Shown piece after piece: positions 54,992-63,534 of a stretch of DNA of 64,000 bases. A program made the position numbers and the translations under genes. A model generated the notes under the pieces. It did no database searches. It saw only the letters and a list, made by a program, of their open reading frames with translations, and was not told the DNA's origin. Where the stretch lies: sequence record MK295204; one strand, given 5' to 3'. The stretch's first letter is position 1. Each line of letters starts with the position of its first letter. The stretch comes from Shigella phage vB_SdyM_006.

Positions 54992-55611
54992 TGAAGAACA
55001 ATAACGTATCACATTCGTCTCCTAATTCTAGTGAAATATATTATGAAGTTCATAATGATACATTAGCAGGTAATAGGGTTCCACTAGGAACCCAAGATAC
55101 AAGACAGTCAAGTTTAAACACATACCAACCTAATGTGCAGGCTGCTATAGACGATCTTAAGGGATCGTTTTTACCTTTAAACACATTAATCTATAACTCT
55201 GATGGAGAAAACCCACAGGGAGCTTCTCAAGTGGATTTTATAGATTTTAGTGGGACCGTTGAAGGAACTGGACCTACTATTGTCCAAGTTTTTGGCCTGC
55301 CCGTAACAGTTAATGGTGGTGATACCGCATCTGAAGTTACAGCAGCGTTCGAAAAACTTGCACAAGACTTGGTTTCTAAAAATCAGTATTTTTCTTTTGT
55401 ACAAAAAGAAACTGAGACTAGACTGACAATCAAATATATCGATTATAGAGACCATGATGCTATAAATATGTATAGTAATGGTATTAATGTATCAACAGAA
55501 CTTCAATCTCCAGCTAAATATGGATATGGGACTTGGGTTAAATTAGGTGTTAAAAATGAAACCTTAGGAGATACAGAATTACCAGTCCATATATTCAAAA
55601 GGATAGCATGA
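54973..55611 (+). CDS. 11: Baseplate wedge protein gp11 (short-tail-fibre attachment)
   Basis: 212 aa; VFGLPV ... GYGTW motifs shared with T4 gp11; an alternative start at 54991 overlaps the gp10 stop. Confidence 0.85.
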   Translation: MDKGSIMKNNNVSHSSPNSSEIYYEVHNDTLAGNRVPLGTQDTRQSSLNTYQPNVQAAIDDLKGSFLPLNTLIYNSDGENPQGASQVDFIDFSGTVEGTGPTIVQVFGLPVTVNGGDTASEVTAAFEKLAQDLVSKNQYFSFVQKETETRLTIKYIDYRDHDAINMYSNGINVSTELQSPAKYGYGTWVKLGVKNETLGDTELPVHIFKRIA

Positions 55612-56954
55612 TGCAAAATACATATAAACATATAAGTGACAGTTCGTCTTTTGTCACTTTTAATCCAGCCAATACACAGTGGGACCAATCTATTAAAGAT
55701 GTCCAGACTGCTTTATCAAAAATTGGTTCATGGGCTATGATAGGTAAAGGATTACCTATCTCAACAGAAACATTAAACGGGATAATTAGAACTGCAACTC
55801 GTGATGAAGTTCTAAAAGGTTTAGGTTCAGGAGCGGTGACACCTAAATATTTAGAAGAACGTCTAGCTCATCCTCAAGCAACAGAATCCGTTTTAGGATT
55901 AACTAAATATGCTAATAATTCTGAAACACTAGCTGGGTCCATTAATAATAAGGCTGTTGTTCCTACTGGATTAAAACATACATTAGATTCTAGAACTTCT
56001 ACTGAAGGAAGAACTGGGTTAATTAAGATATCTTCTTTAGCCGCAGCGGCACAAGGTATTGATGACACAACGGCTATGACTCCTAAAAAAGTCAAACATG
56101 CTATAAACCAATTATCCCCGTCTTATGGTGTTGCAACAGAAAAAAATAGTGGGACCGTTAATATTGCGTCTATAGGGCAAGTTGCCCAAGGTCAAGCACA
56201 TGACGGTATTGCAGTTTCTCCTAAAGGTTTTATTTCAACTAGGGCCACAGAAACACAAGTTGGTACAACTAAAATAGCTAATGTTGCTCAAACTAAAGCC
56301 ATGACTGATGGGACTGTTGTTATTTCCCCTAAAAATTTGGCTCAACTTAAAGCATCAGATTCTGAATTTGGATTAGTTAAAACCACAACAACTATAGGCA
56401 ATTCTGGTGCCAATCTTGCACTAAGTCCTATGGCTCCAGTTGTCCCTAATACAAGAACCGTAAACAATAAGCCTTTAACAGGCAATATTGTTTTAAGCGC
56501 TGATGACGTAGGTGCATACTCTAAATCACAAGTATGGACTAAAACAGAATCCGATGCAAGGTATATGCCTAAAACAGATATTCCAAAACAGTCATTTTAT
56601 ACTTATTTTGATGCATGGGATTTAGGTGGTAAATATCCGATTGGGCGTGGCGGTTATTGGGCAGATATAGGCCAAACTAGATTACCATTTGGTGAATATA
56701 CACGACTACAATTTAATCTGACATTAAAAAATACATCAGATCTTAGACCGTTTGTGTTAAGAATATGGCAAAATGGAACATTAATAAAAGAACATTCTAG
56801 ATTTATAGGTTACCCAAACAATTATGATTTTACAGATAGATTATTAATTAATGGCAAATTTAAAGCTGGGGATATTATTAGGGCAGAAGCCACAGCCAAT
56901 GGTGGTCCTAATTACAGATATAATTTAAGTACATGGTACCTATTATTCACATAA
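55608..56954 (+). CDS. 12: Short tail fibre protein gp12 with divergent C-terminal domain
   Basis: 448 aa; N-terminus MMQNTYKHISD ... KISSL ... DDTTAMTP matches T4 gp12; C-terminal 130 aa or so do not resemble the T4 receptor-binding tip. Confidence 0.85.
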   Translation: MMQNTYKHISDSSSFVTFNPANTQWDQSIKDVQTALSKIGSWAMIGKGLPISTETLNGIIRTATRDEVLKGLGSGAVTPKYLEERLAHPQATESVLGLTKYANNSETLAGSINNKAVVPTGLKHTLDSRTSTEGRTGLIKISSLAAAAQGIDDTTAMTPKKVKHAINQLSPSYGVATEKNSGTVNIASIGQVAQGQAHDGIAVSPKGFISTRATETQVGTTKIANVAQTKAMTDGTVVISPKNLAQLKASDSEFGLVKTTTTIGNSGANLALSPMAPVVPNTRTVNNKPLTGNIVLSADDVGAYSKSQVWTKTESDARYMPKTDIPKQSFYTYFDAWDLGGKYPIGRGGYWADIGQTRLPFGEYTRLQFNLTLKNTSDLRPFVLRIWQNGTLIKEHSRFIGYPNNYDFTDRLLINGKFKAGDIIRAEATANGGPNYRYNLSTWYLLFT

Positions 56955-56963
56955 GGAAATATA

Positions 56964-58700
56964 ATGGATAAAATAGAATTACTTCCACTGCCATTTGTTG
57001 ATGGCCCAATTAAAGACCAAACACAGATAGAATGGATTTTAAATAAAAAAGAATGTTTAACCGGAGCATCTAAATACGGTAAATCGGACGGGGTCCTTAA
57101 TAGGGTCCCAGCACAATTATATGAAAATATCAAAACGCTTGAAGAAAATGACTCATTATTACATGGGCAAGTAAATGAATTGATTGATTCTGTAGATACT
57201 ATTAATGAATCATTAGAAATTGGTAACAATAAAGATTTAATAAAAACAATTATTGAAACCAAAGAACGAGCTGATATATTTGAAAGCGTTATACAAAGCA
57301 ATTCTGATGACATTTTTAGCTTAGACGAAGATATTGTAGATCTGAAGGGAGAAGTTGGTATTCATAATCCTATTGATACTGTAAAAAGAACACTTCGTGA
57401 TGACACATTATGGATTAAACGTGAAATGGGTTCTTATCCAGGCCAAGACATTAATGGACAGTCTTCTCAAGAATCTTTAGGAAGCGGTATGAAAAGACGT
57501 ATTATCGATACTGCAACACAAACAGTTGATAATACTAAAAGAATATCTGCGTTAGAAAAAACATGGAGCGATTCTGATGTTGGTAGTTTAACTATTGAAG
57601 TTGGTAAATTAAGAACTGAACTTGGTAATTCTTCTGATCAAGAATATTTGTCTGTATATAAACGACTTTCTGTTATTGAAGATAACGTAGATAAAGGTAG
57701 TGAAGTCATTAGTGATATTATGACTAAAATAGGTTCTGGTAACATTTCTGAAGCTGTTAATGAAAATAGTTCAGAAATAACTAAACTTAATGAGGAAGTT
57801 CTAGGCACGTCTGGAGTAAAAACTAGAGTATCACGTATAGAAACTAAAATTGGAAATGACACTACACCGTTTACTATTCTTTATGATATAAGTAAAAACA
57901 CAGAAGGATTAAAAGATTTAAATACGACAGTCGGTGCTGACACAAGTTCAGGTCTTCGTGGACAAGTTGCATGGATTCAAACACAAGTTGGCCTTGGAGA
58001 CGAACCACCTGCTCCAGGAACGGTTTTGTCTAAAATAGACTTGTTAACAAATAGCACTAATGAACTTAGTATAGATGTCCAAAATCTCCAATCTGAAGTA
58101 GGTAATAATAAAACTGGTATTAAGGGAACCGTTATTCAATTAGTTAAGGCTATTGAAGGAACTGATCCTGAAGGCACAACGGTTAAAGAAATAGGAATTC
58201 AAAAAGCTACTGAAGATATGTATGAAGTTTATGACAAAGGCATGCCTTTACCTCCAGAAGATGGTAAAGCTTATATATGCCGTTATAAAACTTGGTATGC
58301 TATTCCTACTTCTCTTGGTGTGTTTACAGCAAATTATAATAAAACTGTTGAAGAAGGTCTTAATGATGTTGCAATAACTGATACAGTGATAACTAAGCTA
58401 TGTGAACTCACTGATGGCAAAATCTCTATATTTGATACAGGATATTATGAGATAGATTTTGAATCACTTATCCCTAAAGAGTTTTCCGAAAGAAAAATTA
58501 AATTTAGTTTATTTAAAAATGAAGAAGCTTTTTTTGAAACAAGCGATTTAATTTCTACTAATAATTCTAATGTGTTTAAAGAATCAACTATAGTAGAAAT
58601 AGCGGAAAACGATAATATTTCTATTAAAGTAGAATCACTTGATTCAGATTTTTCTGAAATAACGTTTGGAATTAAAATACAAGTAAAACCACTTATATAA
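56964..58700 (+). CDS. wac: Fibritin (whisker antigen control, Wac) with extra C-terminal domain
   Basis: 578 aa; N-terminus LPLPFVDGP ... matches T4 fibritin; coiled-coil body; foldon-like motif PEDGKAYICRYKTWYAIP followed by about 125 extra residues. Confidence 0.85.
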   Translation: MDKIELLPLPFVDGPIKDQTQIEWILNKKECLTGASKYGKSDGVLNRVPAQLYENIKTLEENDSLLHGQVNELIDSVDTINESLEIGNNKDLIKTIIETKERADIFESVIQSNSDDIFSLDEDIVDLKGEVGIHNPIDTVKRTLRDDTLWIKREMGSYPGQDINGQSSQESLGSGMKRRIIDTATQTVDNTKRISALEKTWSDSDVGSLTIEVGKLRTELGNSSDQEYLSVYKRLSVIEDNVDKGSEVISDIMTKIGSGNISEAVNENSSEITKLNEEVLGTSGVKTRVSRIETKIGNDTTPFTILYDISKNTEGLKDLNTTVGADTSSGLRGQVAWIQTQVGLGDEPPAPGTVLSKIDLLTNSTNELSIDVQNLQSEVGNNKTGIKGTVIQLVKAIEGTDPEGTTVKEIGIQKATEDMYEVYDKGMPLPPEDGKAYICRYKTWYAIPTSLGVFTANYNKTVEEGLNDVAITDTVITKLCELTDGKISIFDTGYYEIDFESLIPKEFSERKIKFSLFKNEEAFFETSDLISTNNSNVFKESTIVEIAENDNISIKVESLDSDFSEITFGIKIQVKPLI

Positions 58701-58705
58701 TTTAA

Positions 58706-58727
58706 GGACCTTCGGGTCCTTTTTTTG
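58706..58727 (+). terminator. Rho-independent terminator: GGACC-UUCG-GGUCC plus U7
   Basis: Read directly, immediately after the wac stop. Confidence 0.6.
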
Positions 58728-58736
58728 GAGTAAATT

Positions 58737-61283: not shown

Positions 61284-63534
<2,251 letters not shown>

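Follow-up and report, generated by a model that had tools for sequence, protein, structure and literature searches.

The wac gene of Shigella phage vB_SdyM_006 belongs to the late structural gene block of a T4-like phage, in a 64,000-nucleotide stretch of sequence record MK295204 that was analysed as a whole (the window). The genes of this block occur in the order gp10, gp11, gp12, wac, gp13, gp14, gp15, gp16, gp17. The order of open reading frames (ORFs), the annotation of Proteus phage phiP4-3 and the PHROG matches of neighbouring genes place wac between gp12, which encodes the short tail fibre, and the neck genes gp13 and gp14. The wac product shares 99.8% identity with the fibritin annotated in phiP4-3 (Bragavirus, Straboviridae), and matches PHROG 1056 ("fibritin neck whisker") over amino acids 1-572 (E 6e-171). 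The features of the locus are as follows.

55608-56954, + strand: gp12, short tail fibre, 448 amino acids; PHROG 910 covers only amino acids 1-327
56964-58700, + strand: wac, fibritin of the neck whiskers and collar; ORF of 578 amino acids plus stop codon
56964-57113, + strand: N-terminal neck-attachment domain, amino acids 1 to about 50, aligning with the N-terminus of T4 fibritin; boundary approximate
57114-58238, + strand: segmented coiled-coil shaft, amino acids about 51-425, collinear with T4 fibritin to amino acid 414 (T4 421)
58239-58316, + strand: degenerate foldon-like segment, amino acids 426-451, GMPLPPEDGKAYICRYKTWYAIPTSL, recognised by Pfam Fibritin_C, phmmer, a foldon HMM and an AlphaFold2 hairpin
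58317-58697, + strand: C-terminal knob, amino acids 452-578, predicted C1q/TNF-like jelly-roll beta-sandwich
58704-58731, + strand: terminator-like hairpin AAGGACC-TTCG-GGTCCTT (UUCG loop) with a T-run, a consensus match directly after the wac stop codon

The terminator-like hairpin ends 6 bases before the start of gp13, and the record of Proteus phage Pm5461 includes a terminator annotated at the same spot on the opposite strand. No chaperone gene lies downstream of wac: gp13 starts 37 bases past the stop codon, and only the hairpin is found between them. Farther along the block, the genes for the small and large terminase subunits, gp16 (61284-61763, + strand) and gp17 (61708-63534, + strand), overlap. 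The gp17 ORF begins with TTG at 61708, and in the phiP4-3 record the gene starts 27 bases later, which corresponds to window position 61735.

The last 120 or so amino acids of gp12 (56568-56951) have no Pfam match and may constitute a receptor-binding head of a non-T4 kind. The strand pattern of this region (FVLRIWQNGTLIKEHS ... KFKAGDIIRAEA) resembles that of the wac knob. A paralogous relationship between the two is not supported by hhalign (E 0.059, probability 0.9%).

Most of the wac product is T4-like. Amino acids 4-414 align with positions 4-421 of T4 fibritin (2bsg_A, 487 amino acids; E 3e-68, phmmer against PDB sequences), and two structures of N-terminal T4 fragments, 2ibl and 1ox3, match amino acids 5-83 (E about 1e-8). 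These alignments bear out an earlier reading, made from the sequence alone, that the N-terminus and coiled-coil body correspond to those of T4 fibritin. In T4, the N-terminal part of fibritin binds gp13, as observed by cryo-EM (PMC12929629). The T4 shaft includes an additional coiled-coil segment of about 28 residues before its foldon (T4 422-449), which the wac shaft lacks.

The foldon-like segment

Beyond the shaft, the phmmer alignment continues collinearly, with wac amino acids 418-451 on the T4 foldon (450-484). Pfam Fibritin_C (PF07921), whose last profile positions represent the foldon, matches amino acids 366-448 over profile positions 2-91 of 93 (E 8e-17; 61.6 bits versus a cut-off of 21). 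The foldon-like motif itself, PEDGKAYICRYKTWYAIP, comprises amino acids 431-448 (window positions 58254-58307). It is followed by 130 residues, or by 127 when counted from the position aligned with the last T4 foldon residue. The sequence-only reading had put this extension at about 125 residues and located it correctly. The T4 foldon is C-terminal and sufficient for trimerisation, whereas the foldon of the wac product is internal and degenerate, and precedes a knob of 127 residues.

The segment occupies the position (amino acids about 430-455) at which other fibritins have a foldon. Short fibritins (455-470 amino acids) have their only foldon there, and the JS98-like fibritins with two foldons have their first one there. 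Conserved residues of the remnant are P, P, DG, AY and W. In an AlphaFold2 model, amino acids 436-440 and 443-447 form a beta-hairpin (pLDDT about 86-88) that matches the hairpin of the T4 foldon. In the reverse direction, a profile of the family's C-terminal region matches isolated T4 foldon chains in the PDB at E values of about 1e-3 (8.5e-4 for 1rfo). Judged by these alignments and the predicted structure, the foldon-like hairpin is homologous to T4 foldon residues 457-483.

An HMM of the foldon only, built from 34 distinct canonical terminal foldons, scores the wac segment weakly, at about 8-9 bits. Such a score might imply that the match is spurious and that the protein ends in a disordered extension or, as in the scenario that the sequence-only reading regarded as its refutation, in a coiled coil that has diverged. 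However, of the 800 pieces of six-frame translation that the 64-kb window yields, the segment matches this HMM best (E 0.03, versus 0.35 for the runner-up), and it is found at the expected position, where Fibritin_C also runs through it. Moreover, long fibritins exhibit a gradient of scores, from 26 bits in Erwinia phage Cronus through 17.5 in the fibritin P0064 and 12 in RB49 to 6-8 in the Proteus and Providencia group. Also, the predicted model consists of a high-confidence hairpin and then an all-beta sandwich, with no helix. A spurious match is therefore very hard to credit.

Degeneration of the foldon is also apparent at two individual positions. Leu429 and Cys439 of the wac product stand where T4 fibritin has Glu461 and Arg471, and these positions are Leu or Ile and Cys throughout the Proteus and Providencia proteins. 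The T4 residues form the Glu5-Arg15 inter-subunit salt bridge of the foldon, on which the stability of the trimer depends. The pair of positions is kept in the fibritins of Cronus, Klebsiella phages and RB49, the last of which has an acidic residue and Arg.

With the canonical foldon HMM, relaxed scores are found wherever a knob or second foldon comes after the foldon. Foldon-like segments that precede a knob score 6-26 bits and terminal foldons 37-65 bits, although the latter values are inflated because terminal foldons were in the training set. In the JS98-like fibritins with two foldons (P0008, P0020 and P0059; 541-558 amino acids), the internal first foldon is degenerate, at 9-23 bits compared with 37-59 for the terminal one. 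Because this internal foldon shares its position with the remnant in knob-bearing fibritins, the data suggest that a foldon at about amino acids 430-455 is ancestral, with further modules appended behind it later.

Fold and relatives of the C-terminal knob

Amino acids 420-578 were modelled as a monomer with AlphaFold2 on a shallow alignment of 7 homologues (mean pLDDT 84.3, pTM 0.77). In the model, the foldon hairpin passes without a linker into an all-beta sandwich (amino acids 451-576) of about 11 strands, and no real helix occurs beyond amino acid 451. The beta-rich composition noticed in the sequence is thus matched in the predicted structure. A Foldseek search of the PDB with this model is among the searches that support a C1q/TNF jelly-roll fold. 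Structural neighbours of the knob include PRD1 P5, the receptor-binding protein (RBP) of lactococcal phage 1358 and TM4 gp23, as well as the short-fibre domain of cyanophage A-1(L) and a Photorhabdus TNF-like lectin. In BFVD, the model matches best the corresponding fibritin pieces of Morganella phage MP1 and Klebsiella phage KPV15; many collagen-like phage fibre proteins bearing C1q heads come next. In these two phages, the foldon-plus-knob is annotated as a separate small ORF (KPV15: P0066, 159 amino acids; MP1: UniProt A0A192YAF6, 141 amino acids), possibly because the gene is split or frameshifted, or through an annotation error.

Sequence profiles point in the same direction at low scores. 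The wac product reaches 14.5 bits with Pfam C1q (PF00386; curated cut-off 23.7) and 14.1 bits with BclA_C (PF18573; curated cut-off 38), each with an E value of about 0.04. BclA_C matches four of the eight family members (best E 6e-4), and matches the RB49 knob at E 3e-4. Adiponectin was retrieved when PDB sequences were searched with the family profile. A Pfam scan of the knob found no enzymatic or Ig-like signature. The knob is thus predicted with good confidence to be a C1q/TNF-like jelly roll, and is not a member of Pfam C1q at the sequence level.

C1q/TNF heads are carried on trimeric stalks by C1q, adiponectin, collagen VIII/X NC1, Bacillus BclA and PRD1 P5. The first four of these heads are obligate trimers in which both termini lie at the base, on the three-fold axis. 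By analogy, and because it is attached to a trimeric coiled coil, the wac knob likely assembles as a homotrimer around a three-fold axis. The wac stalk is an alpha-helical coiled coil and not collagen, and the sequence similarity of the knob is below Pfam thresholds.

The foldon-plus-knob layout is found in more than 200 phage records or genomes. The homologous knobs are distributed as follows.

Proteus phages: 7 records
Klebsiella and Raoultella JD18-like phages: 142 records
RB49-like Krischvirus: 58 records
a Providencia phage, and Erwinia phages Cronus, IT22 and FBB1
Serratia phage Muldoon

These relationships were established with knob-only profiles, which leave out the foldon and the common G-x-F junction. 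In hhalign comparisons, the Proteus-group knob matches the Klebsiella and Erwinia knobs (95% probability, E 4e-8), and the Proteus, Providencia, Klebsiella and Erwinia knobs match those of RB49, JSE and Muldoon (profiles of 10 and 3 sequences) with the same probability and E value. Shallower comparisons of the Proteus-group and Klebsiella-group knobs with a three-sequence RB49 alignment did not reach significance (E 0.018 and 0.086); the RB49 link became significant when Erwinia FBB1, Serratia Muldoon and JSE were added as intermediates. In hmmsearch, a knob-only profile scores RB49 at 26 bits, JSE at 20 and Muldoon at 36, and none of 1000 shuffles of each sequence reaches the real score. On the strength of these profile comparisons, the wac knob is homologous to fibritin C-terminal modules of several other T4-like lineages, including the RB49 type.

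Less sensitive searches retrieved few relatives. Run exhaustively with the single sequence against 1.84 billion representative proteins, phmmer retrieved 3 representatives, all of which are fibritins of 563-578 amino acids. This result speaks against shuffling of the module, although a single-sequence phmmer search says little about remote homologues. A word-indexed homologue search with the 153-amino acid C-terminus yielded nothing, as its index seems too coarse for a fast-diverging domain, and the family profile recovered only four fragments from a search of this kind.

Conservation of the knob was assessed by comparing the wac product with those of three other Proteus phages (Pm5461, PM2 and SJ_PmiM). 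Amino acid identity is 78-80% in the knob, about 90% in the shaft and 95-97% in the last coiled-coil segment. The dN/dS ratio of the knob is 0.08-0.12, values that are rough because dS is near saturation, and its synonymous sites have diverged about as much as those elsewhere in the gene. Strands and loops vary to an even extent (25 of 81 predicted strand positions and 13 of 47 loop positions), and the longest loop is invariant. As far as these alignments tell, the knob is real, is conserved under purifying selection and is an inherited functional part of fibritin.

The GC content is slightly lower over the last 450 bases of wac (0.29 versus about 0.33), and past exchanges of fibritin C-termini are documented (PMC3797505). 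These observations would be in keeping with a module, particular to Proteus phages, that was recently captured by horizontal transfer from a tail-fibre or other fibre gene. However, the exhaustive search found the knob in fibritins only, and homologous knobs, each preceded by this foldon remnant and a G-x-F junction, occupy the same place in the fibritins of at least five phage lineages. The ordinary synonymous divergence of the knob also speaks against a recent arrival, and such a capture is quite improbable. The sequence-only reading, which regarded the extra region as an appended distal domain, was apt in that the region is a separate folded domain at the far end of the whisker, and is at odds with these data in so far as it implied a peculiarity of this phage.

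Fibritin lengths, whose comparison that reading had proposed, differ among the kinds: short fibritins have 455-470 amino acids, two-foldon fibritins 541-558, the knob-bearing fibritins of the exhaustive search 563-578, and RB49 fibritin 589. Letarov and Krisch (2013) described eight types of variable fibritin C-termini, T4, JS98, Acj9, RB43, RB49, 44RR, Aeh1 and Ac42, each of which is tightly linked to a phage lineage (PMC3797505). RB49 fibritin occupies the same gene position as the wac product (589 versus 578 amino acids), and aligns with it end to end at 27% identity. It has a Fibritin_C match with a foldon-like motif (amino acids 368-451, reaching profile position 92 of 93), and then a module of about 135 residues with weak BclA_C/C1q similarity. 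The two knobs are nonetheless highly diverged (13% identity in hhalign), pairwise tblastn does not connect them, and the hosts are E. coli for RB49 and Proteus for the phages with the wac product.

The wac product is thus an RB49-type fibritin, consisting of a T4-like neck anchor, a coiled-coil shaft, a foldon remnant and a linkerless C1q/TNF-like domain of about 127 residues. It belongs to this already described type as a diverged member, and its layout is ordinary in a sizeable group of T4-like phages. Lineage-specific distal modules conform to the same principle elsewhere: RB43 and KP15 fibritins have Ig-like domains, those of Acinetobacter phages KARL-1 and AbTZA1 have an SGNH hydrolase, and JS98 has a second foldon. 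The folds of these modules differ from that of the wac knob, and presumably their activities do as well. The SGNH hydrolase of Acinetobacter T4-like phages is located in the same fibritin position (PMC11058221). A 2022 paper on RB49-like phages noted that their Wac has a C-terminal moiety with no relationship to the T4 one, so that these phages may retract their fibres differently (PMC9569957). The foldon remnant and the C1q/TNF-like fold seem not to have been stated in the published work consulted on the RB49 type, and a full-text literature search for fibritin with C1q or TNF-like terms returned nothing relevant. These two points are modest, useful refinements and not discoveries.

Possible roles of the knob

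For the RB49 type, published biochemistry suggests in the first place that the C-terminal domain serves trimerisation and folding. As summarised by Letarov and Krisch, T4 and JS98 fibritins alone trimerise with a foldon only, and the others, RB49 among them, need an expanded C-terminal domain (PMC3797505); the biochemistry in that summary concerns RB49, not the Proteus-type protein. The wac product likewise has an expanded C-terminal domain of about 130 amino acids directly after the shaft and foldon remnant.

On balance, the knob probably acts as a trimer that both registers the three chains and forms the distal docking surface of the whisker. C1q/TNF heads are nucleation sites that set the register of the attached trimeric stalk. 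In the wac product, three copies of the knob would pack around the fibre axis into a compact structure at the distal end of every whisker or collar fibre. The knob, rather than the weakened foldon, would nucleate the register of the three chains, and the coiled coil would then zip up from the C-terminus toward the N-terminus; the foldon would be reduced to a vestigial adaptor. Three observations together suggest such a transfer of function to the knob: the requirement for the C-terminal domain in RB49, the relaxed foldon scores and the loss of the salt-bridge residues in the Proteus lineage.

The second part of this proposal concerns the partner of the whisker. T4 fibritin governs how the long tail fibres attach and retract, and hence the infectivity of the virion. 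In T4, fibritin is arranged as twelve trimers (PMC12929629), and if the same arrangement holds, the knob would be the distal tip of six whiskers and also of six collar fibres. The knob would then be the whisker surface that touches its partner which, by analogy with T4, would be the long tail fibre near its knee. Such a contact would help fibre attachment and hold the fibres retracted, although docking on the long tail fibre is inferred purely by analogy with T4.

Alternatively, the knob might be a lectin-like accessory adhesin, with which whisker tips reversibly bind O-antigen or capsule and so draw the virion near the cell ahead of tail-fibre engagement. Where a trimeric viral fibre ends in a C1q/TNF-like knob, that knob commonly binds the receptor, as in PRD1 P5 and the 1358 RBP, and many collagen-like phage fibres have C1q heads. 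In this respect, the suggestion of a distal binding or sensing domain in the sequence-only reading is reasonable as to fold, whereas the published RB49 data favour trimerisation. Other fibritins also have modules that appear to face the environment: the Ig-like domains of RB43 fibritin, which Letarov and Krisch suggested to be adhesin-like in function (PMC3797505), and the SGNH hydrolase/esterase modules of Acinetobacter phages.

The knob has diverged roughly twice as far as the shaft (79% versus 90% amino acid identity), as might be expected of an adhesin. However, its dN/dS ratio of about 0.1, the lack of loop-focused variation and the invariant longest loop among Proteus phages are not what an adhesin would predict. 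Each knob subgroup has a different host genus, but host genus is confounded with phage phylogeny. Similarly, a k-mer study ties features associated with LPS sugars to the fibritin gene beside gp12, a signal that may reflect linkage to gp12. Also, fibritin C-terminal types are inherited vertically and track phage lineage, and are not shuffled as adhesins are (PMC3797505). An accessory adhesin is the main rival to the proposed docking role, though rather unlikely.

A broader form of this idea is more doubtful still. If the knob is a C1q/TNF-like lectin, then by analogy with such heads, the whiskers and collar of RB49-type phages could be second, head-proximal sensors of host glycans. This proposal would extend to phages of Proteus, Providencia, Klebsiella, Erwinia and Serratia, and to the Krischvirus phages of E. 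coli. The whiskers, on encountering O-antigen or capsule, would capture cells or cause the long tail fibres to be released, and the logic by which infectivity is controlled would differ from the whisker-fibre latch of T4.

Because the knob is vertically inherited and has no loop-focused variation, a conserved partner within the phage fits these sequence data better than a host receptor engaged in an arms race. The restriction of the knob to fibritins in the exhaustive phmmer search is in line with such a partner. No new kind of system emerges from the wac knob. Nevertheless, its predicted fold makes the role of non-T4 whiskers testable by simple constructs, namely the knob alone, knob deletions and knob swaps. 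The finding is also of modest practical relevance for the engineering of therapeutic T4-like phages of Proteus and Klebsiella, and the knob might provide an alternative trimerisation tag.
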